This document shows, piece by piece, positions 18,933 to 64,000 of a stretch of DNA of 64,000 nucleotides. The notes beneath the pieces were generated by a model. That model was given only the letters and a program-made list of their open reading frames with translations. It had not been told where the DNA came from and searched no databases. The position numbers and the translations under genes were made by a program. Position 1 is the first letter of the stretch. Every line of letters begins with the position of its first letter. The stretch lies in IMG/VR virus record IMGVR_UViG_3300031784_000003; one strand, 5' to 3'. Source of the stretch: a virus. Its lineage: Duplodnaviria; Caudoviricetes.

Positions 18933-18968
18933 TATATTTGCATATATTTGTTTTTAAAATTAATAATT

Positions 18969-19232: not shown

Positions 19233-19233
19233 T

Positions 19234-45953: not shown

Positions 45954-47369
45954 ATGGAAACACAGTTGACTAATATTGAGAAAGAGAACGTAACATTAAC
46001 TAAAAACGGTATGGTTACTAACCCAACAACACTTAATAAGTGTGTTGACTTATTCTTCTCTATTGGTTCAATGAGAGGTAAGTCAAAAGATAAATTAATT
46101 AAAATGTTTAATGAGGCATTTGAAGAAAATCCTTTGATTACGACAAAAATTCTTTTTTGGGTTAGAGATATTAGAGGTGGTGCGGGTGAAAGAAAAGTGT
46201 TCAGAGATATTATTGAATACTTGGTAACTAACTCACCAGAAACAGTTAGAAAAAATATTAATCTAATACCTGAGTTCGGAAGATGGGATGACATATTGAT
46301 TCTTTTGGGTACAGAATTAGAAGAAGATATGTTTTACCATATCAGAGCAGCGTTAATCAACCGTACCGATGGTTTATGTGCTAAATGGATGCCTAGAAAA
46401 GGTGAGTTGGCAAACAAACTTAGAAAATTGTTTAAGATGACACCTAAACAATATAGAAAAATGTTAGTTGAATTAACTAATGTTGTTGAAACTAAGATGT
46501 GTGATAAGGATTGGGAATCTATTGATTATTCTAAATTACCTTCTTTAGCGTCATCTAGATATCAAAAATCTTTTAAGAGAAACGATACTGTTAGATATGA
46601 GGATTATAAAAATGCGTTGGTTGATGGTACCGCTAAGGTAAATGCTGGGGCAGTATATCCATATGATATCATTAAATCTATGAGATATGGTGGTGACGAT
46701 GTTGTCAACAATAAACAATGGGAATCCCTACCAAATTTTATGGAAGGATCCACTGAAAGAATATTACCAGTGGTAGACGTTTCTGGATCTATGACTTGTT
46801 CAGCAGGAGGAAATCCAAACCTAACATGTATAGATGTGGCAATATCATTAGGTATGTATATATCTGAAAGAAGTGAAGGTAATTTTAAAGATGCGTTTAT
46901 CACATTCTCTGAGAATCCACAACTACAGTATTTAAAAGGTGATTTAAAACAAAGATTGAACCAGTTACTTAGTGCGGAGTGGGGTATGACTACTAATTTA
47001 GAAAAAGTATTTAAATTAATACTTACACAGGCTAAGAACAACAAAATATCTGAAGATATGATGCCGACTAAAATAATTATTTTATCGGATATGGAGTTCA
47101 ACGAAGCAACTCGTAAAGATAGTAGTTCACAATCTATGATTGAAGCTATGTATGAGGAGGCAGGGTATAAAAAACCTGATATCATCTACTGGAATTTAAA
47201 TGCGACTGGAGGTAACTTTCCTGTTGAGTTTGATGAAAACGGAACTGCGTTAGTTTCAGGATTTAGTCCGTCAATTCTTAAATCTTTATTAGGTGGTAAG
47301 AATATGACACCAGAATCCATATTGTTGGATACTGTGAATAGTGAAAGATATGGTGTTATAACCGTATAA
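45954..47369 (+). CDS. TROVE/Ro60-like protein (DUF2828-type helical domain plus vWA)
   Basis: RDIRGGAGER, FGRWDD, CAKWMPR; vWA MIDAS DVSGS, FITFS, ILSDMEF. Confidence 0.75.
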   Translation: METQLTNIEKENVTLTKNGMVTNPTTLNKCVDLFFSIGSMRGKSKDKLIKMFNEAFEENPLITTKILFWVRDIRGGAGERKVFRDIIEYLVTNSPETVRKNINLIPEFGRWDDILILLGTELEEDMFYHIRAALINRTDGLCAKWMPRKGELANKLRKLFKMTPKQYRKMLVELTNVVETKMCDKDWESIDYSKLPSLASSRYQKSFKRNDTVRYEDYKNALVDGTAKVNAGAVYPYDIIKSMRYGGDDVVNNKQWESLPNFMEGSTERILPVVDVSGSMTCSAGGNPNLTCIDVAISLGMYISERSEGNFKDAFITFSENPQLQYLKGDLKQRLNQLLSAEWGMTTNLEKVFKLILTQAKNNKISEDMMPTKIIILSDMEFNEATRKDSSSQSMIEAMYEEAGYKKPDIIYWNLNATGGNFPVEFDENGTALVSGFSPSILKSLLGGKNMTPESILLDTVNSERYGVITV

Positions 47370-47391
47370 AAAGTTCTTTGAAAAAAAATAT

Positions 47392-47548
47392 TTGTGATAG
47401 TTAAGGAATAATTGCAGCAAAATTTAAAACTAAAATTTATAGCTACATACAAAGGGCTTGATAACCCTCCTAACTATAAGGGTGTAAACCACGAAAGTGG
47501 GGGACCACTCACGGTTAGGTAAAGTGTCAAACTATTCCGATATCACAA
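47392..47548 (+). ncRNA. Y-RNA-like structured RNA A
   Basis: Closing helices TTGTGATA/TATCACAA and GGAATA/TATTCC followed by TTGCAGCAA; internal hairpins CCTAAC/GTTAGG and CCAC-gaaa-GTGG. Confidence 0.55.
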
Positions 47549-47556
47549 TCATATTA

Positions 47557-47878
47557 GGTGTAATGGATTGGAGGTTAACGAACCTCCTTTAAGTCCGATA
47601 AACGAATGGTTTCTGCAACTCTTATTCTAGGAACTATGTAGATCAGAAGTTTTACCACTTTACTTCAAAAAAAATATAAAGTGGCGACCATAGGTGAGTT
47701 TAAACGTGGGAAATTCCCACACTTTAGGTCGTAAAACATACCTCTTGTTTATCTCAAGTTAAAAAGGTAGTTGGATTTGTCTCAATTAAAAAAAAGACAC
47801 CCGAACCAGAATGGGCCAATAATATTGGGGTGGGTACTCTACCACCTAAAATAAAAACAGGACCACCATTCCGACACC
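47557..47878 (+). ncRNA. Large Y-RNA-like structured RNA B
   Basis: GGTGT/ACACC and GAATGGT/ACCATTC closing helices, TTCTGCAAC motif, at least 7 internal helices, no ORF. Confidence 0.55.
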
Positions 47879-47886
47879 GACATTTA

Positions 47887-47913
47887 AAAGGGAAGAGAAA
47901 TCTTCCCTTTTTT
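47887..47913 (+). terminator. Intrinsic terminator
   Basis: AAAAGGGAAGA-gaaa-TCTTCCCTTTTTT. Confidence 0.85.
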
Positions 47914-47986
47914 ATTTTATAACATTTACAGTTTAAATTATTTTCAGTAACATTGTTTATAATAACAAAGTTAAGAAATTATATAT

Positions 47987-48460
47987 ATGAAAATTGTTAC
48001 AAAAAACATTAAATTAGAAAAAGGGGATAGACATTATTTAATTTATCTAATGGATCATAACAATAACCCTATTGAATGTAAAGAGGCTATCGGAGAAGAG
48101 GATAGATTAGGTAAGGAAAATGAATTAAGTAAACAATATAGTATTACTACTGAAAACATTGAGTTTGTGTCCTTAGATAAATTTAAAAGTCAAAATAGTG
48201 ATTATACCCCACTAATTCTTGTATTTTATTTAGAAAGACACTTATTCTCTAATAGAGATATGATCCAAACCTATGGAGATAGTGTGAGAAAGTATTTGGA
48301 GGATAAAGGTGATGACGTAAGATTATTCTTTTTACCAACGGATGATAAAGAAGAAATAAAATGTATTAATCCTGTTTATATAGAAGATAATGATGAGTTG
48401 GAAAAATTAAATGATCTGATTGAAGATCTTAATGATAAATTTCAAGTTGGTGTTGAATAG
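47987..48460 (+). CDS. Hypothetical protein
   Basis: 157-aa ORF. Confidence 0.55.
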   Translation: MKIVTKNIKLEKGDRHYLIYLMDHNNNPIECKEAIGEEDRLGKENELSKQYSITTENIEFVSLDKFKSQNSDYTPLILVFYLERHLFSNRDMIQTYGDSVRKYLEDKGDDVRLFFLPTDDKEEIKCINPVYIEDNDELEKLNDLIEDLNDKFQVGVE

Positions 48461-49111
48461 TTAAGGGCGGGTGGATGATCTATATGTTTTATTTATTGTC
48501 CACCCAGTCTTTTCCACAATTCTTTTATATGTTTTAGTTCTATTCTTTCTATTTATTGGACCTGTGAATAAGATATTTTTAACTTTATTAGTTTCACAAA
48601 ATTCTAATAAAACCCTATATAATCTTTTAGTATCATAAGGGTTTTTACAAACTATAATATTAAAATCGTAATTTTGATGTATTAATAGTTTATTATTAAT
48701 ATAATTAATTTGTTTGATGTTGTCTTCTTTAGATTTATTTAGTATGAACAACCGTAACAATTTTTTAGTATCCATTCTTTCTTTAAACCCATATACAGTA
48801 AATTTCTCCTCATAAAAATATTCTGATTTATGTATCAGACTCCATTTTTCACTATTTAATTTTACTGGTATAGTTCTACCTAATTCATCTCTATCATAAT
48901 AATCTATATCAGTCTCCTCCTTTTCTTTCAGTAAAAGTAGTTCGTATAAAACTGGTTTTATTTTCTTATAGGCATTATTTTTTTTAGGTAATAGTACAAT
49001 ATTTTTATCCCTAGTTTTGAAGTATTTTTCTTTCGCATTGTTTTCATTACTACCTTCGTATACTATTTTTCTTTTTTTACCGTTCTGAGTAATAATAATT
49101 CTGTAACGCAT
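48461..49111 (-). CDS. Hypothetical basic protein
   Basis: 216-aa ORF filling the gap between plus-strand genes. Confidence 0.6.
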   Translation of the reverse strand: MRYRIIITQNGKKRKIVYEGSNENNAKEKYFKTRDKNIVLLPKKNNAYKKIKPVLYELLLLKEKEETDIDYYDRDELGRTIPVKLNSEKWSLIHKSEYFYEEKFTVYGFKERMDTKKLLRLFILNKSKEDNIKQINYINNKLLIHQNYDFNIIVCKNPYDTKRLYRVLLEFCETNKVKNILFTGPINRKNRTKTYKRIVEKTGWTINKTYRSSTRP

Positions 49112-49166
49112 ATCTTTATTTTCTATTTAAGTATAGTTATACTTTATAAAAAATAAATATAAAATA

Positions 49167-50165
49167 ATGAATAAAGATTATTACCAAATTTTAGGAGTAG
49201 ATAGAAGTGCGAATGAATCCGACATAAAAAAAGCATATAGAAAATTATCTAAAGAGTATCATCCAGATCTAAACCCAAATAATAAAGAGGCAGAAGAAAA
49301 GTTTAAAAGTATTGCCGAAGCGTATTCTGTGTTGTCAGACAAAGAAAAAAAAATAAATTATGATAGATTTGGGACTGCGGATGGTAGAACAAATCCTTTT
49401 GGTGGTATGAATATGGATGACATATTTTCTTCTTTTTATGGTAATATGAAATATGGAAGAAATATGAAAGGTGGAGACATTAGAATTAATGTAAAACTTA
49501 CATTAGAAGAAATGTATAATGGAGTCCAAAAGAAAATAATATATAGAAAATTATCTAAATGTGAACCTTGTATTGGTAGAGGTGGAGAAACAATTAGTTG
49601 CGTTACTTGTAATGGTATTGGTGTGGTAAATAATATTCAAAACACACCATTCGGTAAAATACAAACTACTACACATTGTCCTAACTGTTCTGGTAGTGGG
49701 CAAATCATTACTAAAAAATGTGGTATTTGTTCAGGTAATGGAGTTAGTCAACAAGAAATTCCTTTTGAGTTTGATTTACCTAGAGGAGTTATGGATGGTG
49801 AAATGTTAAGAGTTTTTGGTATGGGTAATTCAGTTAGAAATGGGGTGGAAGGAGATTTATTAATTAATATTATAGAAATACCACATGAAAAATTTAAGAG
49901 GGTAGGTTTAGATATACACCAAAAGATTAATTTAACGTATAAAGATTTAGTTTTAGGTAATGATTCTGTTGAGATAGATACTATAGACAATAAAATAAGG
50001 TTTAAAATACATCCTGGGACTAAGATTGGAACAATGTTAAGGGTACCTAATAAAGGGTTCATTAGAGAAAATTTAAACGGTGATATGTTATTGGAGATAT
50101 GGTTAGATATACCAACAAATATCGATGAAGAAGAAAAAGAAAAAATTAATTTATTAAAAATTTGA
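49167..50165 (+). CDS. dnaJ: DnaJ chaperone
   Basis: J-domain HPD, four CxxCxGxG motifs, C-terminal substrate-binding domain. Confidence 0.93.
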
Positions 50166-50221
50166 TTTTTCGGAAATTAATAGATAAATTTGTGTATTAT
50201 TAATTAAAAAATATAAAAATT

Positions 50222-50647
50222 ATGGCAAAATTTGAAGAAGTCTTTGAAGACACATTAGAATTGTTTCAAAAACACATTGATGAAAGTTCTATCCCTAAAT
50301 TCCTTAAAATTAAAATTTTATCGAATAACAATCTTAAAAAAGATTTTGGTGTAGTTAGTAAATCACAAGATATTGTGAAATATATGACTGACTATGATAT
50401 CATCATTCAAGTTAATGAACCAATATTCGATCAATTAGAAAATACTCAAAAAGAGTATATCGTTAGTGATCTTTTGGCTCAGATTGTATATGATATGGAT
50501 AAGGATAAAGTTAGTATTGTGAAACCTGATGTTAACACATTTAGTGGTGTATTAAGAAAATATGGTATCGATACATATTTATCAATTAAAGAAAGTATTT
50601 CAGTACTTTTAGAACAAAAACAAATTGAAGAAGATGCAGTTAGATAA
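50222..50647 (+). CDS. Phage metallopeptidase-like fold, apparently lacking HExxH
   Basis: YDIIIQVNEPIFDQL..QKEYIVSDLLAQI..KPDVNTF..VLRKYG pattern. Confidence 0.45.
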   Translation: MAKFEEVFEDTLELFQKHIDESSIPKFLKIKILSNNNLKKDFGVVSKSQDIVKYMTDYDIIIQVNEPIFDQLENTQKEYIVSDLLAQIVYDMDKDKVSIVKPDVNTFSGVLRKYGIDTYLSIKESISVLLEQKQIEEDAVR

Positions 50648-50837
50648 TAGTAATGGTATAAATAAAATTGCCACCGATCCAACCCTATCTAAACAAGAAA
50701 AGAATTGGGAGTTGATGAGTGTTTTAGGAATGAAATGGTCAGAAACAGTTTCTCTTACTGATGAAGACAGAGATTTTTTATTAACTAAGGTGGAGAAGAT
50801 TAAAATTCATATTGAAAAAAGTAGAAAATTACAATGA
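50625..50837 (+). CDS. Hypothetical protein
   Basis: 70-aa ORF overlapping its neighbours. Confidence 0.5.
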   Translation: MKKMQLDNSNGINKIATDPTLSKQEKNWELMSVLGMKWSETVSLTDEDRDFLLTKVEKIKIHIEKSRKLQ

Positions 50838-51745: not shown

Positions 51746-51747
51746 AC

Positions 51748-52638: not shown

Positions 52639-52656
52639 AATAGTAAATAATTTAGG

Positions 52657-53082: not shown

Positions 53083-53117
53083 ATTTTTATTATATATTTG
53101 TACAATAATTTATTTTT

Positions 53118-53937: not shown

Positions 53938-53938
53938 T

Positions 53939-54214: not shown

Positions 54215-54401
54215 AAAAATATTTGTTTTTAAGTAAATTATATATATATTTGTAGATATAATAATAACACTAATGAGTTTATCTAAAAAAATATACGAAG
54301 AAATCAAGTATGAGGAAGAAAATATTTCTTACGATGAGAGTGGTTGGGTTGATAGAGTATTGTATACTAAAGATAAATTAAAAGAAAGTTCTTTGAAAAA
54401 T

Positions 54402-54802
54402 GGGGATGGTTTTGGATTTGACAATCAAAGGTTGAGTTCGGAATGATGCAAGCAGGGTTAGATGGAAACCCTTAAACACCTATCAAAACATAAATGCAAA
54501 CGCATACAACGTAGAGGATATCATGAGTATCCCAACTTCTATTACTCGCTCAGCGGTAGTTGAAGAGATTGAATTAATGGAATTAGTTTAATCGGTGGGT
54601 CACACTTACCTAGAAACAGAAAGGTGTAAAAAATAGAGTTGATCGTCAATACTCTATAAACAATTGACGAAAACAGGGTTGTTGGATAACCATGTTATAA
54701 ATAAAACCAAATATTTTGTTTATTTAGAAAAATAAACTAAGCTTGTGAATGATTTTCTTATGGCGATTTGATTGGACGAGGGTTCGACTCCCTCCATCTC
54801 CA
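54402..54802 (+). ncRNA. ssrA: tmRNA
   Basis: 5' GGGGATG..GGATTTGAC; 3' T-arm GAGGG-TTCGACT-CCCTC and CATCTCCA with G3:U; resume codon GCA at 54496, tag ORF ends 54591. Confidence 0.92.
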
Positions 54803-54872
54803 CTAGTGTTGTCGGTTTCTTTGTTCCCTAAAAACAAAGTGGTGGAAGTTGATAGTAATCCTATCGGCCCTT

Positions 54873-54903
54873 TAACCCCTCAGAGTGAGGGGTTATTTTT
54901 TTT
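54873..54903 (+). terminator. Intrinsic terminator
   Basis: TAACCCCTCA-gag-TGAGGGGTTA followed by a T tract. Confidence 0.85.
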
Positions 54904-54944
54904 ATAATTTTAATATTTTGGGAAGGTACAAATTTGAAAATAAA

Positions 54945-55606: not shown

Positions 55607-55607
55607 T

Positions 55608-56806: not shown

Positions 56807-56908
56807 AGATCATATTTCATTGTGGTGGAGAAGAAATATTGTGGATTACTGCCCACCAGAATTAGAAGACGAGGAATTTTCAGAAAAATATAGATAAAAA
56901 ATATAATT

Positions 56909-57679: not shown

Positions 57680-57727
57680 ATAAGAAATAAATGAAAGTAA
57701 AGTTATTAATAAAATATTAGTTAGAGA

Positions 57728-58036
57728 TTGATTATGTTTGAGATTATTGGTATTGTGTCTTTATTTGCGGTAGTATCTTTTTTACTGTTTATACAATATA
57801 GTTTAGTTGGTGCAGGTGTAATGAAAGAAAGTTTAAAGTGGTATGGGAAAGTTATTAGTTGGATCCCATTATTACCTTTTATTATATTTATTTTATTTTT
57901 TTTAAATTTTATGGTTATGATAGTGTTAAATAAATTAGTTAAGTGGTTTGAATTAAATTGGGGATGGTTTTTTATAAATGGTAGAAATCAAGCGGTTTGG
58001 GCAGAATATTTAAGAAAAAAATATGGTGAAGAATAA
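57728..58036 (+). CDS. Membrane protein
   Basis: Two long hydrophobic segments. Confidence 0.5.
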   Translation: MIMFEIIGIVSLFAVVSFLLFIQYSLVGAGVMKESLKWYGKVISWIPLLPFIIFILFFLNFMVMIVLNKLVKWFELNWGWFFINGRNQAVWAEYLRKKYGEE

Positions 58037-58040
58037 AAAA

Positions 58041-58086
58041 TAAAAAAATATTTTTAAAATATTGACTTTTTAGATAAACTTTTGTA
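58041..58086 (+). promoter_or_regulatory. Promoter of tRNA operon 1 (46-bp repeat, copy 1)
   Basis: taaaaaaatatttttaaaatattgactttttagataaacttttgta, identical to 59495..59540. Confidence 0.8.
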
Positions 58087-58117
58087 TAATTGGTTATATT
58101 TAATTAAAACAGTGAAA

Positions 58118-58204
58118 ATGAAAATACATAATATACATATTAATTTTAGCCAATGGTGTCAACCGTATATCGGCGGATTGGGGTATATTATGGATATAAT
58201 TTAA
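58118..58204 (+). CDS. Attenuator leader peptide 1 (MKIHNIHINFSQWCQPYIGGLGYIMDII)
   Basis: 28-codon ORF between promoter and terminator (in-frame GTG also at 58112); codons match operon 1 tRNAs. Confidence 0.75.
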   Translation: MKIHNIHINFSQWCQPYIGGLGYIMDII

Positions 58205-58230
58205 TTGATAGTTAAATAAAATCAAAGTGA

Positions 58231-58265
58231 AACCCCAATTCAGAAATGATTTGGGGTTTTTTAAT
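58231..58265 (+). terminator. Attenuator terminator 1
   Basis: AAACCCCAATTCA-gaaa-TGATTTGGGGTTT plus U tract; competing strand ATTGGGGT at 58177..58184. Confidence 0.85.
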
Positions 58266-58271
58266 TTATTA

Positions 58272-58347
58272 CGGTATGTGGCCAAGTAGGTTTAAGGCAT
58301 CTCGCTGATATCGAGAAGATTCGTAGGTTCGATCCCTACCATACCGA
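58272..58347 (+). tRNA. tRNA-Ile(GAT)
   Basis: Cloverleaf; TCTCG-CTGATAT-CGAGA. Confidence 0.9.
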
Positions 58348-58356
58348 CAGAACAAA

Positions 58357-58370
58357 AGTTCTTTGACATA
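58357..58370 (+). promoter_or_regulatory. boxA-like antitermination element
   Basis: AGTTCTTTGACATA; also at 59742, with variants at about 47372 and 54387. Confidence 0.6.
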
Positions 58371-58387
58371 TTGTTATAAAAGTGAAT

Positions 58388-58460
58388 GACTCAGTAGCTC
58401 AGTTGGTAGAGCAATTGACTGTTAATCAATCGGTCGCAGGTTCGAATCCTGCCTGAGTCG
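58388..58460 (+). tRNA. tRNA-Asn(GTT)
   Basis: Cloverleaf; loop CTGTTAA. Confidence 0.95.
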
Positions 58461-58461
58461 C

Positions 58462-58523
58462 AAACTAACACAGAATGAATGATACGAGCCTCACAAGTTC
58501 GAAAGGAGTCAGGGTGTTAGTTT
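58462..58523 (+). ncRNA. Small structured element with anticodon-like stem-loop (CAC)
   Basis: 10-bp stem AAACTAACAC/GTGTTAGTTT enclosing CGAGC-CTCACAA-GTTCG. Confidence 0.4.
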
Positions 58524-58527
58524 AAAT

Positions 58528-58611
58528 GGGAATACGCCAAAGTTGGAGAGTTGGGGCAGACTGTAAATCTGTTGTCTTATGATTGAGTAGGTTCGAATCC
58601 TACTATTCTCA
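58528..58611 (+). tRNA. tRNA-Tyr(GTA)
   Basis: Cloverleaf with long variable arm; loop CTGTAAA. Confidence 0.92.
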
Positions 58612-58612
58612 C

Positions 58613-58693
58613 AAAATATTAAAAGGAAGATTTCAGCAAAAATAACTACGAACTGCAAATTTGGATATGTAAAAACATTTTCCTGAATATTTT
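58613..58693 (+). ncRNA. Minimal Y-RNA-like element with Cys anticodon-loop mimic
   Basis: AAAATATT/AATATTTT and AGGAAGAT/ATTTTCCT stems, TTCAGCAA motif, CGAA-CTGCAAA-TTTG hairpin. Confidence 0.5.
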
Positions 58694-58697
58694 ATTA

Positions 58698-58768
58698 GCG
58701 TCTCTGGTGTAACGGTAGCACCAACGGCTCCAACCCGTTAAGTAAGAGTTCGAATCTTTTGGGGCGCG
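58698..58768 (+). tRNA. tRNA-Trp(CCA)
   Basis: AACGG-CTCCAAC-CCGTT. Confidence 0.9.
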
Positions 58769-58773
58769 CAAAT

Positions 58774-58849
58774 GGTGATGTAGCTCAGTTGGTAGAGCAA
58801 TGGACTGAAAATCCTTGTGTCGGTGGTTCGATTCCGTCCATCACCACCA
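58774..58849 (+). tRNA. tRNA-Phe(GAA)
   Basis: Cloverleaf with encoded CCA. Confidence 0.95.
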
Positions 58850-58857
58850 AATTTTAA

Positions 58858-58932
58858 CTGGGTATTGGCTAATTGGTAAGCCGCCACATTTGGGATGTGG
58901 ACATAGTGTGAGTTCGAGTCTCGCTACCCAGA
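58858..58932 (+). tRNA. tRNA-Pro(TGG)
   Basis: CCACA-TTTGGGA-TGTGG. Confidence 0.92.
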
Positions 58933-58939
58933 CTAATAT

Positions 58940-59013
58940 TGTCCTGTAGACGAATTGGCAAAGTCATCACGCTTTGAACGTGAAGTTTGGAAGTTCGAGC
59001 CTTCCCAGGACAA
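58940..59013 (+). tRNA. tRNA-Gln(TTG)
   Basis: TCACG-CTTTGAA-CGTGA. Confidence 0.9.
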
Positions 59014-59015
59014 CT

Positions 59016-59089
59016 GTGTATGAAGCTAAAGAGGTCGAGGCGTCGGGTTGTGATTCCGATAATAGTGGGTTCGAGTCCCATCGTACACC
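59016..59089 (+). tRNA. tRNA-His(GTG)
   Basis: TCGGG-TTGTGAT-TCCGA; C73 discriminator. Confidence 0.9.
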
Positions 59090-59093
59090 TAAT

Positions 59094-59180
59094 GGAAAGA
59101 TGACAGAGTGGTTTATTGTGGCACCCTGCTAAGGTGTTGTACTCGAAAGGGTACCATAGGTTCAAATCCTATTCTTTCCG
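59094..59180 (+). tRNA. tRNA-Ser(GCT)
   Basis: GCACC-CTGCTAA-GGTGT; long variable arm. Confidence 0.92.
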
Positions 59181-59186
59181 CAATAT

Positions 59187-59258
59187 GGGGATGTGATGTA
59201 ACGGTGAACATGCTACTCTTATACAGTAGTCTCGGTGGTTCGACTCCACCCATCCCTA
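59187..59258 (+). tRNA. tRNA-Ile(TAT)
   Basis: CTACT-CTTATAC-AGTAG; GGGGATG/CATCCCT acceptor stem. Confidence 0.85.
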
Positions 59259-59262
59259 CAAC

Positions 59263-59335
59263 ACACTCTTAGTTCAATGGATTAGAACCTATGACTACGG
59301 ATCATAAAATGGGAGTTCGAATCTCTCAGAGTGTA
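59263..59335 (+). tRNA. tRNA-Arg(ACG)
   Basis: TATGA-CTACGGA-TCATA. Confidence 0.9.
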
Positions 59336-59404
59336 CAATAAACTTATTTTTGCTACAATAAACAGATAAAGTTTATCATGCAAAATCTAGTTTAGTGAAC
59401 TAAT

Positions 59405-59478
59405 GGTCAGATGCCTGAGTGGTTTAAAGGGGTAGTCTGCAAAACTATTTTTCGGGGGTTCGAATCCCTCTCTGACCT
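59405..59478 (+). tRNA. tRNA-Cys(GCA)
   Basis: GTAGT-CTGCAAA-ACTAT; U73. Confidence 0.92.
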
Positions 59479-59494
59479 CATAAATAAAAAAAAT

Positions 59495-59540
59495 TAAAAA
59501 AATATTTTTAAAATATTGACTTTTTAGATAAACTTTTGTA
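59495..59540 (+). promoter_or_regulatory. Promoter of tRNA operon 2 (46-bp repeat, copy 2)
   Basis: Identical to 58041..58086; followed by Bacteroidota -7 element TAACTTTG. Confidence 0.8.
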
Positions 59541-59578
59541 ACTTTGTGTATATTTAATTAAAAACGAAATAAAATTCA

Positions 59579-59677
59579 GTGAAAACTACAATGACATACA
59601 GATTAGAGGTTGCTAAGGCAAAAATGGATGGGGCGGATTCGCTTCTACCAAATCTTAGGGTATATCATTATAGTTAA
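59579..59677 (+). CDS. Attenuator leader peptide 2 (MKTTMTYRLEVAKAKMDGADSLLPNLRVYHYS)
   Basis: 32-codon GTG-start ORF in the same cagtgaaaa context as leader 1; codons match operon 2 tRNAs. Confidence 0.75.
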   Translation: MKTTMTYRLEVAKAKMDGADSLLPNLRVYHYS

Positions 59678-59706
59678 TCAAAAAAATTTAAAATACTATA
59701 TTATGG

Positions 59707-59740
59707 AAACCCTAAGTGAAAACTTAGGGTTTTTTGTTTT
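59707..59740 (+). terminator. Attenuator terminator 2
   Basis: AAACCCTAAGT-gaaa-ACTTAGGGTTT plus U tract; competing CTTAGGGT at 59654..59661. Confidence 0.88.
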
Positions 59741-59741
59741 T

Positions 59742-59755
59742 AGTTCTTTGACATA
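59742..59755 (+). promoter_or_regulatory. boxA-like element
   Basis: AGTTCTTTGACATA immediately after terminator 2. Confidence 0.6.
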
Positions 59756-59766
59756 TTAAAAAAAAT

Positions 59767-59852
59767 GGAAGAGTGGCAGAGTTGGTTTATTGCACCTGTC
59801 TTGAAAATAGGAGTACTTAACGGTACCGTAGGTTCGAATCCTACCTCTTCCT
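59767..59852 (+). tRNA. tRNA-Ser(TGA)
   Basis: CCTGT-CTTGAAA-ATAGG; long variable arm. Confidence 0.92.
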
Positions 59853-59855
59853 CAA

Positions 59856-59999
59856 AATGATAATAAAGGGATTGTTTCTGCAACAATTATTTTAGCCTTT
59901 TAAGCTCGGGGTCGTAGGTTCGAATCCTACCTGAGGACATTTATTGTCTTCAGTAGCTTAGTGGTAGAGCACGTATACAACCCAATCCTGATTATCATT
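59856..59999 (+). ncRNA. YrlA-like Y RNA (circularly permuted tRNA mimic)
   Basis: Closing stems AATGATAAT/ATTATCATT and GGGATTG/CAATCCT; T-arm precedes loop-closed acceptor stem CTGAGGAC/GTCTTCAG, then D-arm. Confidence 0.8.
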
Positions 60000-60004
60000 T
60001 ATTA

Positions 60005-60080
60005 GGTCCATTGGTGTAATGGTTTAACATACATCACTGTCTATGATGTGCTGAGAGTTCGATTCTCTCATGGACCGCCA
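60005..60080 (+). tRNA. tRNA-Asp(GTC)
   Basis: Cloverleaf with CCA. Confidence 0.93.
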
Positions 60081-60081
60081 C

Positions 60082-60154
60082 AGTCTCTTAACTCAGTTGG
60101 TAGAGTGCTTGTTTTACATGCAAGATGTCGTAGGTTCGAATCCTACAGAGACTA
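60082..60154 (+). tRNA. tRNA-Val(TAC)
   Basis: CTTGT-TTTACAT-GCAAG. Confidence 0.92.
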
Positions 60155-60162
60155 CTAAATAC

Positions 60163-60236
60163 CGCCCGTTGGACAAGTGGTTTAAGTCGTTTCCCTTTCA
60201 CGGAAAAGATCATGGGTTCGAATCCCATACGGGTGA
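60163..60236 (+). tRNA. tRNA-Glu(TTC)
   Basis: TTTCC-CTTTCAC-GGAAA. Confidence 0.92.
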
Positions 60237-60242
60237 CTATTA

Positions 60243-60314
60243 GGTTTTGTAGTTTAGTCGGTAAAACTCTTGATTTGTAATCAAGTGTCCTCAGTTCGAA
60301 TCTGAGCGAAACCT
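60243..60314 (+). tRNA. tRNA-Thr(TGT)
   Basis: CTTGA-TTTGTAA-TCAAG. Confidence 0.9.
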
Positions 60315-60320
60315 CAACAA

Positions 60321-60395
60321 TCCTTCGTAGCTCAGTTGGTTTAGAGCAGTACACTTTTAATGTACGGGTCACAGGTTCGATTCCTGTCGGGGGAA
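60321..60395 (+). tRNA. tRNA-Lys(TTT)
   Basis: GTACA-CTTTTAA-TGTAC. Confidence 0.93.
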
Positions 60396-60429
60396 CTTAA
60401 ATATACCGAATTCGGTGTAATTAAAAAAT

Positions 60430-60507
60430 AGCGGGGTAGACTGGAGGTGGTTCCAGCTCGGTCTCATAAGCCGAATTACGTGGGTTCGAGTCCCATCCCC
60501 GCAACCA
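60430..60507 (+). tRNA. tRNA-Met(CAT), initiator-like
   Basis: TCGGT-CTCATAA-GCCGA; unpaired A1:A72; CCA encoded. Confidence 0.85.
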
Positions 60508-60510
60508 ATT

Positions 60511-60584
60511 GGGTCATTGGTGAAGATGGCTATCACACCTGATTTGCACTCAGGAGTCCTCGGTTCGATGCCGAGATGTATCCA
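60511..60584 (+). tRNA. tRNA-Ala(TGC) with bulged acceptor stem
   Basis: CCTGA-TTTGCAC-TCAGG; G3:U70 present; one extra T in the 3' acceptor strand. Confidence 0.8.
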
Positions 60585-60750
60585 CTAATAATAAAAATAA
60601 AAATAAAAAGTATGAAAGAAGTAATGTCTGGGACAATTAAGTCCTCAAAGGAAAATTTTAATATGTTGAGACATAGAAAAAATTCAATCGATTTAAGTAA
60701 GTTGGTAGAATTTATTAAATTTAAAAAGATTAGGAAAAAATAATCTTAAT

Positions 60751-60823
60751 GCAGGTATCGTATAGTGGTTTATTATGTCTGACTTCCAATCAGAGGACGA
60801 GAGTTCGATTCTCTCTACCTGCT
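60751..60823 (+). tRNA. tRNA-Gly(TCC)
   Basis: TCTGA-CTTCCAA-TCAGA; U73. Confidence 0.92.
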
Positions 60824-60829
60824 CAAAAT

Positions 60830-60904
60830 GCCAAAGTGACGGGAAATGGTATACCTCTTTGTCTTAGAAACAAAGGTTTGTGAGTTCGAATCTCACCTTT
60901 GGTA
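60830..60904 (+). tRNA. tRNA-Leu(TAG) with short variable loop
   Basis: TTTGT-CTTAGAA-ACAAA; 5-nt variable region GGTTT. Confidence 0.8.
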
Positions 60905-61134
60905 CAATTATTATTAAAATATTTGTTTTTTAATTTAATAGTTTTTATATTTGTTAAAAAAATATTATGGGAATACCTCAAATCACTTTAATTTTATTAT
61001 TTTCTTTAAGTTTATTAGCTGCAGCTCATTTGCACGGTAAAGAAAGAACCCCACATAACTTTTGGGTTACATTTATTGCAGTCATCATCGAAGTATCTAT
61101 TTTAATATGGGGTGGGTTTTTTTAAATTAGTATT

Positions 61135-61488
61135 ATGAGTAAAAGAACTATAGAGGATGTAGAAAGAGAACTTTATATGGCACAATTCAGAGTTAAAAAA
61201 TGTCAATATAATGATCACCTTTATGATATGGAAAAATGGGAATATGAAGTTGAAATTCTTAAAGATGAATTAAAAAATATGAAAATGGAACAAACACCAG
61301 TAGAATGGTTTTTTAAACAACTTACAGAGGTTGATTATGGATGTATAAACAAAACATTCTTACAAAACAATAACAGTTTAGCGGGCCATAAGTTGAGAGA
61401 ACTTCTTGAACAAGCCAAAGAAATGGAAAAAGAAAGATTAGAATCTCTTAAAGATTTTGATAATTGGAAAGAATGGAAAAACTCATAA
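61135..61488 (+). CDS. Hypothetical protein
   Basis: 117-aa ORF; QTPVEWF and LLEQAKEMEKE motifs. Confidence 0.55.
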   Translation: MSKRTIEDVERELYMAQFRVKKCQYNDHLYDMEKWEYEVEILKDELKNMKMEQTPVEWFFKQLTEVDYGCINKTFLQNNNSLAGHKLRELLEQAKEMEKERLESLKDFDNWKEWKNS

Positions 61489-61643
61489 TAATATGTCATA
61501 CTATAGAATCAAAATTAGAATGGATTAAAGAAGATGGTAAAGATTGGTTAGAACCATTTGTTGAAGCGGTATATAAAGTTTGGGACAAATTTAACATCCA
61601 ATATGTGAGATATTCTTGGTGATATTAAAAACTTTTAGTATAT

Positions 61644-61910
61644 TTGTATTATGAAAAATTGAAACCAATGGCAAAAATAAGTAAATTAGCACAAAGACAA
61701 GTTGTATCAAATCATCACGATATTCATGTTGGATTGACTGGTGACATCGGTTACATATCAATAACTGATAACGGATTGTACCCAGATAATGATAGCAGAA
61801 CACATAGACGTGATTTGAACTTTCATACAATGATGGTTCCTCTCATGACCAGACAACAACTCAAAGATTTGAAAATAGCAATTGAAGAAGTCTTAAAAAA
61901 TTCTAAATGA
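61644..61910 (+). CDS. Hypothetical protein
   Basis: ORF; ATG of MAKISK is the likelier start. Confidence 0.5.
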   Translation: MYYEKLKPMAKISKLAQRQVVSNHHDIHVGLTGDIGYISITDNGLYPDNDSRTHRRDLNFHTMMVPLMTRQQLKDLKIAIEEVLKNSK

Positions 61911-62185
61911 TTATGAGTACGAATAAACGAATAAAAGAAACTTTTGAAAAGTTAGGTAAAGATTTGATTATATCTAAACAAGGATGTGATACAAAAAAGA
62001 TGTTGGAGAACATCAAAAATAAAGTAGAGATAAAAAAAATTGTTGCAGAAATAATTGACACACTAACAGTATCTTCTATTATGGTAGATGCGTGGTGGAT
62101 GGATTTAAGTGATGAACAAGAACAAGAAGTTTACAACAAATTAGAAGAAATTATTACTAGAAGAATTGGTAAAATGAAGATTTAA
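61907..62185 (+). CDS. Hypothetical protein
   Basis: 92-aa ORF. Confidence 0.5.
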   Translation: MIMSTNKRIKETFEKLGKDLIISKQGCDTKKMLENIKNKVEIKKIVAEIIDTLTVSSIMVDAWWMDLSDEQEQEVYNKLEEIITRRIGKMKI

Positions 62186-62213
62186 TAATAATTTTATTAA
62201 AAAATAAATTTAA

Positions 62214-62906
62214 ATGAAGAAAAAAATTACTTTTATTAGCGATACCCACACCAAACACGAAAAACTAAATAGTTTTTTACCTGGTGGAGACATCCTTATT
62301 TGTGGGGGTGATATTAGTAGTAGAGGTTATGTCTCAGAAATAGAAAACTTTTTAAAATGGTTTGATAATATAGATAATTACGATTTTAAAATTTTTATCG
62401 CAGGAAATCACGATTTTGGGTTTCAAGATGATTATGAAAAAATTATGGGGTTATTAACTGGTTACAAAAATATCGATTATCTTCAGGATGAAAAAATGGA
62501 ACTTTGGGACGATGAAGATATGCAGTTGATTGTATATGGATCCCCTTGGCAACCTGAATTTCATAATTGGGCATTTAATTTACCTAGAGGTGAGAAAATA
62601 AAAGAAAAATGGGATATGATTCCACACAATACAGATATTTTAATTACTCACGGCCCACCATACGGTAAATTAGACTATGTAAATTATGACAACATCAATG
62701 TTGGTTGCGAAGAACTATTAAAAGTTGTGGAGGATATAAAACCTAAAATACATGTGTTTGGACATATTCATGAAGGGTTTGGTTATGTTTTTGACGGTAA
62801 CACACATTATATTAATGCGGCAGTATTAAATGGTAGATATGAATTTAGAAATAAACCAGTAAATGTTGAGTGGGACATGATAACTAACGAAATACAATTT
62901 TTATGA
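62214..62906 (+). CDS. Calcineurin-like metallophosphoesterase (MPPED-like)
   Basis: ISDTH, GGDIS, AGNHD, ITHGPP, FGHIHE. Confidence 0.9.
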   Translation: MKKKITFISDTHTKHEKLNSFLPGGDILICGGDISSRGYVSEIENFLKWFDNIDNYDFKIFIAGNHDFGFQDDYEKIMGLLTGYKNIDYLQDEKMELWDDEDMQLIVYGSPWQPEFHNWAFNLPRGEKIKEKWDMIPHNTDILITHGPPYGKLDYVNYDNINVGCEELLKVVEDIKPKIHVFGHIHEGFGYVFDGNTHYINAAVLNGRYEFRNKPVNVEWDMITNEIQFL

Positions 62907-63211
62907 AATCCATAAGACAAATTTTTAAAACTAACGATTCACTTATGGAAGAACCTGAGGTTTCAGAATTAATTGATTATTGTAAAGATTTAGAAGATGA
63001 AGTTGTAGAATGTATCCAAAAAAATGATCAGACAATAGTTTTAAAACAACTAATTTCAGAAATTAGTAAAAGTTGTTATGAATTAATTGAGGAAGATAAA
63101 AAGTCTGAACGATGGGAACATGATTTTGAAAAGATTGACTTTAAAAAATCTATAATTAATTTAAGAGAATATATAATAAAATATTGTTTAGATAATAAAA
63201 TAAAATTATGA
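62903..63211 (+). CDS. Hypothetical protein
   Basis: 102-aa ORF overlapping both neighbours by 4 nt. Confidence 0.55.
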   Translation: MKSIRQIFKTNDSLMEEPEVSELIDYCKDLEDEVVECIQKNDQTIVLKQLISEISKSCYELIEEDKKSERWEHDFEKIDFKKSIINLREYIIKYCLDNKIKL

Positions 63212-63645
63212 TAAAGTATAGAATATATTTGGATGACATAAGAACTCCAGTGAGTCCTAATAACGAATGGGTTGAAGGTGTTGAAGAATGGACAGTTGTT
63301 CGTTCATATGATGAATTCGTTCAAAAAGTAAATTCGGTAGGGTTAGAAAATATTGAAATAATTTCGTTGGATCACGATTTGGGTGATACTGCGATGAACG
63401 AGTGGTTATATGGTGTAACTAAAAACTACTCAATTAATTATGATAATATTACCGAAAAGACTGGTTACGACTGTGCTAAATGGTTAGTTAATGAGTGGAT
63501 GGATGGTAAACCAGTTGTTAGGGTAGTAACACATTCGGCAAATGCAATCGGTAGTGCCAACATTATGGGTTATGTAAATAATTATTTACACTTAAATCGT
63601 TTACCGCAAAATTGTGTAAGAGTACAAATAGAACATACAGTTTAA
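63208..63645 (+). CDS. Cyclic-phosphate-processing receiver-like domain protein
   Basis: IYLDDIRTP, ISLDHDLG, TGYDCAKWL, THSAN. Confidence 0.78.
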   Translation: MIKYRIYLDDIRTPVSPNNEWVEGVEEWTVVRSYDEFVQKVNSVGLENIEIISLDHDLGDTAMNEWLYGVTKNYSINYDNITEKTGYDCAKWLVNEWMDGKPVVRVVTHSANAIGSANIMGYVNNYLHLNRLPQNCVRVQIEHTV

Positions 63646-63646
63646 T

Positions 63647-64000
63647 ATGAAAGTAATATTTTTAGATCACGATGGTGTGATATGTTTATCTGATCAGTGG
63701 GGTGGTCGTTATAAGAAAAAAGGATTTAACTCTAATCCTGAAACCCCTTTAGATATTAGAATGGATAATTTTGACACTAAGGCAGTTAAAGTTCTTAATA
63801 AAATTATTGAGGAAACTGGTTGTGAGTTGGTTATTAGTTCAGATTGGAAGAGATGGGGAACGTTAGAACAAATGAAGGAAATGTATGTGACTAGAGGTAT
63901 TAAACCACCGATAGATCTAACACCAATGATACAAGAATGTACGGTACATAGTGATACATTTATATGGTCACCTATGTGGGAGTTGGAACAAACCAGATCA
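63647..64000 (+). CDS. HAD-superfamily phosphatase (RNA-repair SAK-type), 3'-truncated
   Basis: MKVIFLDHDGVI, LNKIIEETGCELVISSDWK; runs off the window end. Confidence 0.78.
   Translation, partial: MKVIFLDHDGVICLSDQWGGRYKKKGFNSNPETPLDIRMDNFDTKAVKVLNKIIEETGCELVISSDWKRWGTLEQMKEMYVTRGIKPPIDLTPMIQECTVHSDTFIWSPMWELEQTRS

Follow-up and report, generated by a model that had tools for sequence, protein, structure and literature searches.

Background

Bacteriophage T4 combines a tRNA cluster with Pnkp and Rnl1, enzymes that repair tRNA-Lys by healing and sealing it after cleavage by PrrC, an anticodon nuclease of the host (reviewed in PMC7824862). The trpL, hisL and ilvGMEDA leaders are multivalent leader-peptide attenuators of amino-acid operons. 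The Salmonella rsr-yrlBA-rtcBA operon encodes a Ro60 orthologue, the Y RNAs YrlA and YrlB, the RtcB ligase and the RtcA cyclase, and is induced by damaged tRNAs via RtcR (PMC7790460, PMC4201824). Thermus phage phiLo encodes a Ro60 with the RNAs Yrl1 and Yrl2 (PDB 9KOP, 9L5Y); this Ro60 binds host PNPase and is proposed to capture and damp it (PMC12135203). In Escherichia phage Bas63 (JohannRWettstein), gp130 counters the Ppl defence, an ATPase plus PHP domain proposed to act on DNA (bioRxiv 10.1101/2024.10.10.617714). Iyer et al. 2021 (PMC7824862) made a phyletic survey of the jumbo-phage RNA-repair repertoire. That survey and Burroughs and Aravind 2016 set out the idea that phage tRNAs, RNA ligases, cRec, SAK-HAD phosphatases and ROT/TROVE proteins jointly answer host attacks on translation, and the general concept is already published.

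We analyzed 64 kb (hereafter the window) of the 273-kb genome of a freshwater T4-like jumbo phage. An earlier note had read a part of it (45954-64000) as one integrated module against translation-targeting defences, composed of attenuators, 22 tRNAs, Y-like RNAs with a TROVE protein, a tmRNA and phosphoesterases. All of these components are present in the sequence, at or near the positions proposed for them, and tRNA supply and RNA damage are their common theme. The analysis directly shows the sequence, the folds, the family matches, the codon statistics, the conservation and the covariation; from these we infer leader translation, switching, RNA-protein binding, enzyme substrates and the trigger. 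All features of the window given with positions below lie on the plus strand.

A Ro60-like protein and its adjoining RNAs

The putative RNA-binding protein encoded at 45954..47369 consists of a HEAT-repeat ring and a vWA domain with an intact DxSxS MIDAS motif, whose residues are invariant. Pfam assigns it to DUF2828 and DUF7788, and, unlike the Salmonella protein, it belongs to the DUF2828 branch and not to Pfam TROVE. However, the best 13 PDB matches to its AlphaFold model (pLDDT 91) are all Ro60/TROVE structures (E down to 8e-10, TM 0.54-0.63), and the protein is modelled with confidence as a Ro60/TROVE ring, in agreement with the TROVE identity first proposed for it. The phage-encoded Ro60-fold ring of phiLo is the best structural match, although sequence identity to it is only ~17%. 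Bas63 gp130 is a true homologue, with 40% identity over 94% of the protein.

The RNA 3' of this gene, with two conserved structured RNAs at 47392-47878, shows a folding z of -4.4, conservation equal to that of the protein and compensatory changes at 21 of 130 predicted pairs. The ends of RNA-A (47392..47548) pair as a long stem, with a 5' strand of GGAAU followed by AAUUGCAGCAA, while RNA-B (47557..47878) has a bulged basal stem whose 5' strand carries a CGAA motif and then GGUUUCUGCAAC. A motif of the type UUCUGCAA persists 3' of the gene in relatives down to ~53% protein identity. Neither RNA-A nor RNA-B matched an Rfam family. As in phiLo, two Y-like RNAs adjoin the gene and a CGAA motif lies in or near the basal stem, but the phiLo RNAs are upstream of the gene and a tRNA-array context is not described for that phage. 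The first transcription unit would run from one promoter through the Ro60-like gene and a boxA-like motif to the two Y-like RNAs, ending at an intrinsic terminator (47886..47913). The protein probably assembles with the RNAs into a ribonucleoprotein for dealing with damaged or misfolded RNA; alternatively, this particle may engage a host exoribonuclease, as has been described in other Ro60/Y RNA pairs.

tRNA operons with proposed gating by leader peptides

As expected, 22 tRNAs covering all 20 amino acids lie at 58272-60905 in two operons. Operon 1 (58272..59479) has 12 tRNAs: Ile-GAT, Asn, Tyr, Trp, Phe, Pro, Gln, His, Ser-GCT, Ile-TAT, Arg-ACG and Cys. Operon 2 (59767..60905) has 10: Ser-TGA, Asp, Val, Glu, Thr, Lys, Met, Ala, Gly and Leu-TAG. 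AGA/AGG and TTA/TTG, the phage's main Arg and Leu codons, are not read by the tRNAs in the window.

Each operon is preceded by a promoter, a short leader ORF and a terminator. Promoter 1 (58062..58090; TTGACT, 17 nt, TATAAT) precedes leader ORF 1 (58118..58204; 28 codons, antiterminator strand 58175-58184) and attenuator terminator 1 (58229..58262). Promoter 2 (59516..59544) shares its 25-mer with promoter 1 and precedes leader ORF 2 (59579..59677; 32 codons, antiterminator strand 59652-59661) and attenuator terminator 2 (59705..59735). The leader codons list the downstream tRNAs, and the match is far above chance. In leader 1, tRNAs of array 1 read all 16 consecutive codons from 3 to 18, and 11 of these 12 tRNAs are represented (iid probability 3e-7), a level reached by none of 15,135 real 16-codon windows; in leader 2, 20 of 23 codons cover all 10 array-2 tRNAs, which none of 14,848 windows equalled. 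The leaders are kept in relatives with the order of the peptide reshuffled and the amino-acid set unchanged. Pairing of the antiterminator with the 5' arm of the terminator is predicted in all six leaders examined, although their sequences differ. The attenuators of the earlier reading are upheld, although inspection of the sequence revealed no clear Shine-Dalgarno ahead of the leaders.

Like the trpL, hisL and ilvGMEDA leaders, the phage leaders are short ORFs rich in regulatory codons, with mutually exclusive antiterminator and terminator hairpins and a U-tract terminator. However, they regulate tRNAs and a Y-like RNA rather than biosynthetic enzymes, and each samples 10-11 tRNAs, mostly once or twice each. 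We found no published account of leader-peptide attenuators gating tRNAs. In the proposed mechanism, both operons, with the same promoter type, would be gated in this way: when matching charged tRNAs are scarce, the leader would be decoded slowly, the antiterminator would form and the tRNA operon would be transcribed, whereas fast decoding would let the terminator form. Switching might be triggered by a host tRNase defence, or by tRNA depletion that the infection itself brings about.

Operon 2 also holds, between tRNA-Ser and tRNA-Asp, a YrlA-like RNA (RNA-C; 59855..60000) with a 17-bp basal stem and the motif GUUUCUGCAAC. Beyond this motif lie, in order, a hairpin whose loop is CUUUUAA (59894-59906), a T arm, an acceptor-like hairpin that is closed, and a D arm. 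In a local search RNA-C matched the tRNA-like core of YrlA with 30.9 bits (E 2.8e-5), well under the YrlA gathering score of 69. The acceptor-like hairpin shows compensatory changes. RNA-B and RNA-C carry one copy each of GTTTCTGCAAC, the only two exact copies in the window. With RNA-C, the Y-like RNAs of the earlier note are accounted for, and the place of one of them within an attenuator-gated operon supports its reading: since operon 2 holds RNA-C, we propose that one Y-like RNA is made on the signal that calls for replacement tRNAs.

tmRNA and putative RNA-end repair

The second unit is a tmRNA (54402..54805), confirmed by a score of 104 bits where the gathering score is 47. Its predicted tag is unusually long, at 31 residues, and ends in ELV. 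This tmRNA has its own boxA-like motif and an intrinsic terminator (54873..54903), and would free ribosomes stuck on mRNAs. The term tmRNA does not occur in the text of PMC7824862.

The phosphoesterases are likewise present, in a cassette at the end of the window. A promoter-like site (62055-62082) precedes a calcineurin-like metallophosphoesterase (Metallophos; 62214..62906), followed by a conserved 102-residue protein with a weak DUF7893 match (62903..63211), a protein with a cREC (cyclic-phosphate-processing receiver-like) domain (63208..63645) and the N-terminal part of HAD_SAK_2, a 'Swiss Army Knife' RNA-repair phosphatase (63647..64000), whose gene runs past the window end. This fifth unit would trim the 2',3'-cyclic or 3'-phosphate ends of cut RNA. 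There is no kinase or ligase gene inside the 64-kb window. Beyond its end, the phage's own contig carries HAD_SAK_2, a second HAD, Band_7 and PolyA_pol, and in the downstream region of a relative there are a further six tRNAs along with an Fmt-like gene, a CCA enzyme and a ligase resembling Rnl1. In the phage's own contig and the relative, the themed region continues past the cassette and the window end with further tRNAs, a CCA-adding enzyme and a ligase of the Rnl1 type.

Shared control signals

The promoter and boxA motifs said to link several of these parts are indeed shared. TTGACTTTTTA has exactly three copies in the 64 kb, ahead of the TROVE gene and of both leaders, and the promoter core TTGACTTTTTAGA, an exact 11-mer, likewise has three, confined to the upstream regions of the Ro60-like gene (promoter-like site 45902..45930; TTGACT, 17 nt, TAAATT) and of tRNA operons 1 and 2. 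The boxA-like motif GTTCTTTGA has four copies, all on the plus strand and 5-30 nt 5' of stable RNAs, so placed ahead of all four stable-RNA units and conserved in relatives: 4 nt past the Ro60-like stop codon and 5' of RNA-A (47373..47381), 5 nt upstream of the tmRNA 5' end (54388..54396), in tRNA operon 1 (58358-58366) and, for operon 2, after attenuator terminator 2 (59743-59751).

Recurrence in other phages

Co-occurrence across phages was supported in part. The Ro60-like gene is enriched near tRNA arrays: of 11 cultured phages, drawn from several families, 9 have tRNAs no more than 3.5 kb from the DUF2828 gene. The recurrence of the Ro60-like gene beside tRNA arrays in unrelated phage families argues against independent distribution, the pattern that the earlier note had named as one that would refute it. 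The association is loose among 80 uncultured relatives: 16 have a tRNA within 2 kb of the gene, 36 have one within 10 kb, 9 have a tmRNA and 5 have homologues of the window's repair proteins. Across phages, tmRNA and repair genes occur beside the Ro60-like gene only occasionally; its steady neighbours in the 80 relatives are two unknown proteins, DnaJ and a metallopeptidase. Gene order is kept among close relatives, as common descent alone would predict. In individual phages, a YrlA-like RNA lies 140 nt 3' of the DUF2828 gene (Mycobacterium phage Whirlwind), RtcB, RNA ligase, HAD and phosphoesterase genes lie just 3' of it (Listeria phage LP-064), and tRNAs, an unannotated tmRNA and two YrlA-like RNAs occur together with it (Enterococcus phage EFDG1).

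Discussion

The locus resembles the Salmonella rsr-yrlBA-rtcBA operon in having a Ro60-type ring protein with Y RNAs alongside, one Y RNA with and one without a permuted tRNA-like module, associated RNA end-processing and ligation enzymes, and expression that would be tied to tRNA damage. However, RtcB and RtcA are absent in the phage, its parts are spread over ~30 kb in several units, and in place of the RtcR activator its sensor would be two leader-peptide attenuators gating tRNAs and one Y-like RNA. Like T4, this is a T4-like phage with its own tRNAs and a HAD-type end-healing phosphatase, and an Rnl1-type ligase is found in the relative's downstream region. Unlike in T4, a polynucleotide kinase domain was not found in this phage, the phosphatase is of the HAD_SAK family and is accompanied by cREC and a metallophosphoesterase, the tRNAs number 22 rather than 8 and are attenuator-gated, and a tmRNA and a Ro60-like ribonucleoprotein are added. 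As for the earlier survey, the portions of Iyer 2021 considered here do not mention attenuator sensors, a Y-like RNA within a tRNA operon, or promoter and boxA-like motifs that several units share.

A single integrated module can be set aside, as the stretch from 45954 to 64000 has at least five transcription units, counted as separate because their own terminators delimit them, with DnaJ, a metallopeptidase, two DNA methylases, HNH genes and many unknowns between; nor do the sensors control the whole, since only the tRNAs and RNA-C are behind attenuators.

One alternative, which we consider unlikely as a whole, is a circuit dedicated to countering host defences such as anticodon nucleases and systems like them. 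Here the attenuators would sense the attack, the tRNAs would replace cleaved host tRNAs, Y-like RNAs with an anticodon-like loop would act with the TROVE ring as nuclease decoys, the tmRNA would free stalled ribosomes, and the phosphoesterases and ligase would mend cut tRNAs. The CUUUUAA loop of RNA-C exactly matches the anticodon loop in the phage's tRNA-Lys, its hairpin is invariant in three relatives and RNA-C comes from an attenuator-gated operon. tRNA-Lys is the classical target of PrrC-type nucleases. Against this, the anticodon-like stem is just 3 base pairs long and offers no covariation, and Ro60 and Y RNAs are known to act in RNA quality control and in tethering or inhibiting PNPase rather than as decoys; a decoy role and an anti-tRNase purpose are inferences. 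The cREC and HAD_SAK families are predicted, in the portions of PMC7824862 considered here, to process the 2',3'-cyclic phosphate ends left by anticodon nucleases, and a relative has an Rnl1-type ligase and a CCA enzyme further downstream, but the parts are loosely linked across relatives. The theme of counter-defence is supported by Bas63 gp130, a family member reported experimentally as a counter-defence gene and, as here, associated with tRNAs, lying directly upstream of a tRNA array. However, Ppl, the defence that it counters, is proposed to act by degrading DNA rather than tRNA, and attenuators, a tmRNA and a phosphoesterase cassette were not seen in the 6.4-kb stretch around gp130. Moreover, the sensors would answer equally to tRNA loss from infection or to codon-usage mismatch.

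It is just as doubtful that the parts are independent, co-located only as stable-RNA and early/middle accessory genes gather in a plastic T4-like region. The tRNAs would then tune codon usage, the Ro60-like ribonucleoprotein would manipulate a host RNase for unrelated reasons, the tmRNA would be a hitchhiker and the phosphoesterases would act on other substrates. The several transcription units with unrelated genes between them fit this account, as do HNH homing endonucleases, typical of plastic regions, both here and in other phages, the rarity of repair homologues near the Ro60-like gene and of tmRNA in the 80 relatives, and Xanthomonas phage XbC2 and Staphylococcus phage Alsa_3, which carry the DUF2828 gene without nearby tRNAs. 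However, only these units have the promoter core and the boxA-like motif, an RNA next to the Ro60-like gene has a motif in common with the RNA within tRNA operon 2, at least six unrelated phage families have the gene beside tRNA arrays, and the four-way co-location of tRNAs, tmRNA, YrlA-like RNAs and gene recurs in EFDG1. Nearest-tRNA distances among the 80 uncultured relatives also pile up below 2 kb (16 loci, versus 3-8 per further 2-kb shell).

The explanation that we favor, with some reserve, is a themed island of ~30 kb devoted to translation maintenance and RNA damage, of which the stretch from 45954 to 64000 would be the first two thirds. On balance, its parts are best seen as a loosely linked toolkit of separately transcribed units, which would be held together by a common theme and some control signals rather than wired into a single module.

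Leader units and tRNA operons

The 22 tRNA genes at 58272-60905, on which ARAGORN and Rfam are concordant, serve all 20 amino acids and, under the wobble rules applied, read 90.5% of the codons in the long ORFs of the window. AGA/AGG and TTA/TTG, the main arginine and leucine codons of the phage, are left unread by these tRNAs. One relative has a third tRNA region downstream, with tRNA-Arg(TCT) and five others, where the phage's own contig has a 1.5-kb gene-free gap. In this relative's locus (L019:12378-15772 and 17947-20612) the tRNA genes (Glu, Met, Arg-TCT, Met, Val and Thr-AGT) are scattered and are accompanied by further boxA-like motifs of the kind described below. A 43-codon ORF was called inside operon 2 of the window, between tRNA-Ala and tRNA-Gly (60612-60743), as well as in the phage's own contig and in L005, a locus of a relative (15629-15760).

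The tRNA genes are arranged in two arrays, each of which ends a paralogous sensor unit consisting of a short ORF, a terminator (58229-58262 and 59705-59735, respectively) and the array itself, and an identical 25-nt promoter segment is found in both units. The codons of the short ORFs correspond closely to the tRNAs that follow. Codons 3-18 of leader 1 are all read by array-1 tRNAs (16/16), covering 11 of the 12 tRNAs in that array; the probability of such a match under an iid model is 3e-7, and none of 15,135 16-codon windows from the phage's own ORFs reached the same level. In leader 2, each of the 10 array-2 tRNAs is represented among 20 of the first 23 codons, a level attained by 0 of 14,848 windows. 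The leader ORFs are retained with proper ATG starts in relatives, in one of which the order of the leader peptide is reshuffled and its set of amino acids unchanged. No clear Shine-Dalgarno sequence was found ahead of the leaders. Codons 7-9 of leader 2 (59597-59605) are TAC, AGA and TTA (CTA in one relative), none of which is served by array 2; TAC is read by the tRNA-Tyr of array 1, and AGA and TTA, the commonest arginine and leucine codons of the phage, have no reader tRNA in the window.

An antiterminator of 8-12 bp, in which the 3' part of the ORF pairs with the 5' arm of the terminator, was predicted in all six leaders folded with the terminator 3' arm left out, and the pairing sequences differ and covary between the units. 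Equilibrium folding of the full leaders always kept the terminator. The antiterminator emerged only in folds lacking the 3' arm, the condition that a co-transcriptional reading calls for. Leader-peptide attenuators are characterized by an ORF rich in codons that report on the product, a terminator, and an alternative pairing that overlaps the ORF, and both units have all three. The sensor units therefore have the classical leader-peptide attenuator architecture, applied here to tRNA genes, with switching predicted from the sequence. Our literature search found no paper on attenuator-gated tRNA genes.

A Ro60-like protein and its candidate RNA partners

For the ORF at 45954-47369, DUF2828 and DUF7788 were the only Pfam assignments obtained, with no TROVE domain among them; the ORF also matches PHROG 850, annotated as 'RNA-binding protein'. 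No meaningful PDB match was obtained with phmmer, and a profile of the family matched TROVE chains only at E 0.05-0.6, a weak match that comes from the MIDAS region. The AlphaFold model (pLDDT 91.3, pTM 0.90) has the hallmark of Ro60/TROVE proteins, a ring of HEAT-like helical repeats with a C-terminal vWA domain, and the best 13 Foldseek matches in the PDB were all Ro60/TROVE, including the Ro60 of Thermus phage phiLo, with full-length alignments of about 500 columns (E 8e-10 to 1e-5, TM 0.42-0.63). The vWA MIDAS motif (DxSxS; D283, S285 and S287) is invariant in 43 diverse members of the family, which comprises 711 deposited phage records and thousands of metagenomic clusters and numbers 6,822 clusters at 50% identity. 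By its predicted structure, DUF2828 is a Ro60-fold family, one that tends to adjoin tRNA arrays in unrelated phage families.

The stop codon of the Ro60-like gene is followed by a boxA-like motif and then by about 490 nt of non-coding DNA that folds far better than its shuffles (z = -4.4), is as conserved as the protein, and has a consensus fold of 130 pairs, 21 of them with compensatory changes. Two RNAs with paired ends were resolved within it, RNA-A (47392-47548) and RNA-B (47557-47878), with a terminator after them. An Rfam search of 47370-47990 at a permissive threshold returned neither YrlA nor any other family. Relatives down to about 53% protein identity have a shorter RNA with the motif UUCUGCAA at the same place. 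RNA-A and RNA-B are candidate Y RNA partners of the Ro60-like protein, to which they may bind.

A third RNA, RNA-C (59855-60000), lies in operon 2, where it fills the space from tRNA-Ser to tRNA-Asp. Its basal stem is 17 bp long, and it shares with RNA-B the motif GUUUCUGCAAC, which has no other exact copy in the window. RNA-C matches YrlA (Rfam RF02553) with 30.9 bits (local E 2.8e-5), over model positions 24-84 only and below the gathering threshold of 69 bits. It has the permuted tRNA-like module of YrlA, namely a T arm, a closed acceptor-like hairpin and a D arm on a long end-paired stem, with order and arms aligning to the model; in relatives a different hairpin takes the place of the acceptor-like one. 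The loop of a small hairpin in RNA-C, CUUUUAA, is identical to the anticodon loop of the phage tRNA-Lys and is presumably what the earlier note had called an anticodon loop. The stem of this hairpin has only three pairs and is invariant, so that it yields no covariation. YrlA-like RNAs also adjoin the Ro60-like gene homologues of the phages Whirlwind and EFDG1. In Cronobacter phage S13 (L009:21868-22110), two over-long annotated 'tRNAs' of 121 and 113 nt lie about 500 nt downstream of the DUF2828 homologue; they were scored as tRNA rather than YrlA by Rfam and were not called by ARAGORN, and they could be tRNA-like partner RNAs.

The tmRNA, shared motifs and transcription units

The tmRNA at 54402-54805 (Rfam RF00023) scores 104.4 bits against a threshold of 47 and covers model positions 1-374. 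ARAGORN assigned it an atypical tag frame of 31 residues that ends in ELV, not Ala-Ala. The tag region is strongly diverged in the tmRNA of a relative (L007:8600-8969), in which a frame ending in VFA is open for about 29 codons and ARAGORN calls an 8-residue tag only. A called 57-residue ORF (54273-54446) crosses the boxA-like motif into the 5' end of the window's tmRNA.

The earlier note had claimed that shared promoter and boxA motifs link several of these parts, and this is borne out. The promoter core TTGACTTTTTA has three exact copies in the 64 kb, one ahead of the Ro60-like gene and one ahead of each leader. The boxA-like motif GTTCTTTGA has four, all on the plus strand and 5-30 nt before RNA-A, the tmRNA, tRNA-Asn and tRNA-Ser, and relatives retain it at each of these places. 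The form GTTCTTTGACA agrees at 9 of 11 positions with the E. coli boxA core GCTCTTTAACA. By this resemblance the motif is a putative Nus-factor antitermination site like those of rRNA operons, which NusB/NusE may bind. We rejected the alternative that it is a promoter -35 element because it lies too near the mature 5' ends, such that transcription would begin within the tmRNA and tRNA sequences themselves. Literature hits to the string were confined to unrelated primers and sequences.

These motifs bear on whether the parts belong together. The earlier note had read 45954-64000 as one integrated module of sensing, replacement, decoy, rescue and repair against defenses that target translation. 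All of its listed components, the tRNAs, tmRNA, attenuators, TROVE-like protein, Y-like RNAs and phosphoesterases, are present. Integration itself holds in part: besides the shared motifs, RNA-C is part of an attenuator-gated operon in which no terminator is predicted from the attenuator to RNA-C. However, the Ro60/Y unit and the tmRNA unit are each closed by a strong terminator, the repair cassette has its own promoter-like site, and between the units lie genes for DnaJ, a metallopeptidase, two DNA methylases, HNH and many unknown proteins. Pure co-location of the parts, for which these separations speak and against which the shared motifs do, is unlikely.

Repair genes

The cassette of Metallophos (62214-62906), a 102-residue protein, cREC and the start of HAD_SAK_2 (to 64000) is kept in relatives. 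Beyond the window, the phage's own contig carries a second HAD, Band_7 and a PolyA_pol-family (CCA-adding) gene. In the relative with the third tRNA region (L019), a formyltransferase-like (Fmt-like) gene, a CCA-adding enzyme and an Rnl1-type RNA ligase follow that region. No polynucleotide kinase domain was found in any protein scanned. T4-type healing and sealing (Pnkp and Rnl1) needs a 5' kinase, a 3' phosphatase and an RNA ligase, whereas the window has phosphoesterases only, and an Rnl1-type ligase was found in a relative alone, about 13 kb farther along.

Distribution among phages

The window is AT-rich (about 28% G+C), and its transcription runs almost wholly on the plus strand. Megablast of the region found no close relative among deposited phages. 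The window's genes are also on a 272,978-nt metagenome contig, which is the phage's own, and the relatives are contigs of 144-288 kb from lake samples; an IMG/VR scan with a single-protein query gave nothing, and an alignment-based query recovered relatives. Runs with near-identical DNA are mostly of freshwater type (lake, reservoir and drinking water) and come from 16 studies in all, with wastewater and 'fungus metagenome' labels among them. Sequencing-run matches, in which assembled contigs only are represented, were mostly tRNA cross-hits from other organisms; one metatranscriptome run contains pieces of a relative's tRNA arrays, again as assembled contigs, in which missing coverage of the leaders carries no evidential weight.

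The earlier note had proposed gene co-occurrence across jumbo phages as a check, with independent distribution of the components among the refuting outcomes. In 9 of 11 cultured phages with a homologue of the Ro60-like gene, tRNAs lie at most 3.5 kb from it (S13, KVP40, SUSP1, Bas63, LP-064, EFDG1, Chewbecca, CP30A and Whirlwind). In Bas63 and SUSP1, the homologue (gp130 in Bas63) is directly upstream of the tRNA array. Of the other two, XbC2 has no nearby tRNAs and carries an adjacent RNA ligase gene and, at a distance of 3.8 kb, a CCA/cyclic-phosphodiesterase gene, and Alsa_3 has neither tRNAs nor repair neighbors of the XbC2 type near the gene. In LP-064 the gene is followed by RtcB, an RNA ligase, a HAD and a phosphoesterase. 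Enterococcus phage EFDG1 repeats a four-way set of tRNAs, an unannotated tmRNA, two YrlA-like RNAs and the DUF2828 gene.

The EFDG1 and CP30A loci hold unannotated RNAs. The EFDG1 tmRNA (NC_029009.1, L014:2086-2436; 140.6 bits) is inside the tRNA array, and its two YrlA-like RNAs (44.9 and 34.2 bits; L014:5438-5739) are just upstream of the DUF2828 gene. Campylobacter phage CP30A has four tRNA genes (L013:4889-5302) about 700 nt upstream of its DUF2828 homologue, in a 1.27-kb annotation-free gap. In Listeria phage LP-064, the stretch upstream of the DUF2828 gene, as far as the tRNA array, contains a ROOL-like large RNA (L011:5468-6019; 87.4 bits, E 3e-16, just short of the gathering score, 99.1).

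Co-occurrence is looser in 80 uncultured relatives. A tRNA was present in the available flank (up to 10 kb) of 36/80 and within 2 kb in 16/80, against a rough expectation, estimated from array and genome sizes and not a computed control, of about 13% and 5%, respectively, for the proximity of a random gene in such genomes to a tRNA cluster. The nearest-tRNA distances peak within 2 kb (16 loci), with 4, 5, 8 and 3 loci in the next 2-kb shells. A tmRNA was found in 9/80 loci and homologues of the repair proteins in 5/80, the latter by tblastn with the window's own proteins, a search that other ligase or phosphatase families would escape. The steady neighbors of the Ro60-like gene in these relatives are two unknown proteins, DnaJ and a metallopeptidase. 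The corresponding block of the window (47987-50647) encodes proteins of 157 and, on the minus strand, 216 residues along with DnaJ and a phage metallopeptidase; no other neighbor is as constant, at 17-24 of the 80 loci. The 157- and 216-residue proteins matched no known family, and atlas look-ups of three unknown neighboring proteins (256, 216 and 157 residues) gave no usable lead. Taken with the cultured phages, this distribution means that the parts of the island are not independently distributed, yet they do not form a fixed module.

Interpretation

Phage tRNAs, ligases, cRec, SAK-HAD and ROT/TROVE proteins have already been put forward as an answer to attacks on translation (PMC7824862). 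Y RNAs beside Ro60 have been published for mycobacteriophages (PMC4201824), a phage Ro60 that comes with two Y-like RNAs has been described as binding and damping the PNPase of the host (PMC12135203), and Bas63 gp130 is reported to counter the Ppl defense (bioRxiv 10.1101/2024.10.10.617714). To this the present locus adds its sensor layer, a Y-like RNA within a gated operon, motifs common to several parts, and a wide-ranging link between DUF2828 genes and tRNA arrays.

We read the locus as, probably, a themed and partly co-regulated island for translation maintenance and the handling of RNA damage. A specific circuit of decoys against tRNases, which would draw on the tRNA-Lys anticodon loop of RNA-C, is unlikely. 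Improbable too is a closed-loop circuit in which a single transcriptional signal couples sensing, replacement, decoy or capture, and repair. Slow decoding of a leader would switch on the replacement tRNAs together with the YrlA-like RNA that bears the tRNA-Lys loop; this RNA would load the phage Ro60-like ring; and the resulting particle would titrate anticodon nucleases or pass cut tRNAs to the cREC, HAD_SAK and Rnl1 enzymes.

Phage tRNAs, RNA-repair enzymes and Ro60-like proteins have so far been proposed as responses to attack mostly from gene lists. This locus supplies concrete, testable wiring: sensors that would gate tRNA operons, a Y-like RNA that would be produced with them, a motif that RNA-C has in common with the RNAs next to the Ro60-like gene, a shared promoter core, and a boxA-like element at all of the stable-RNA units. 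Since the counter-defense phenotype of Bas63 gp130 is already experimental, tractable coliphages may be used to learn the role of the phage Ro60-like particle.
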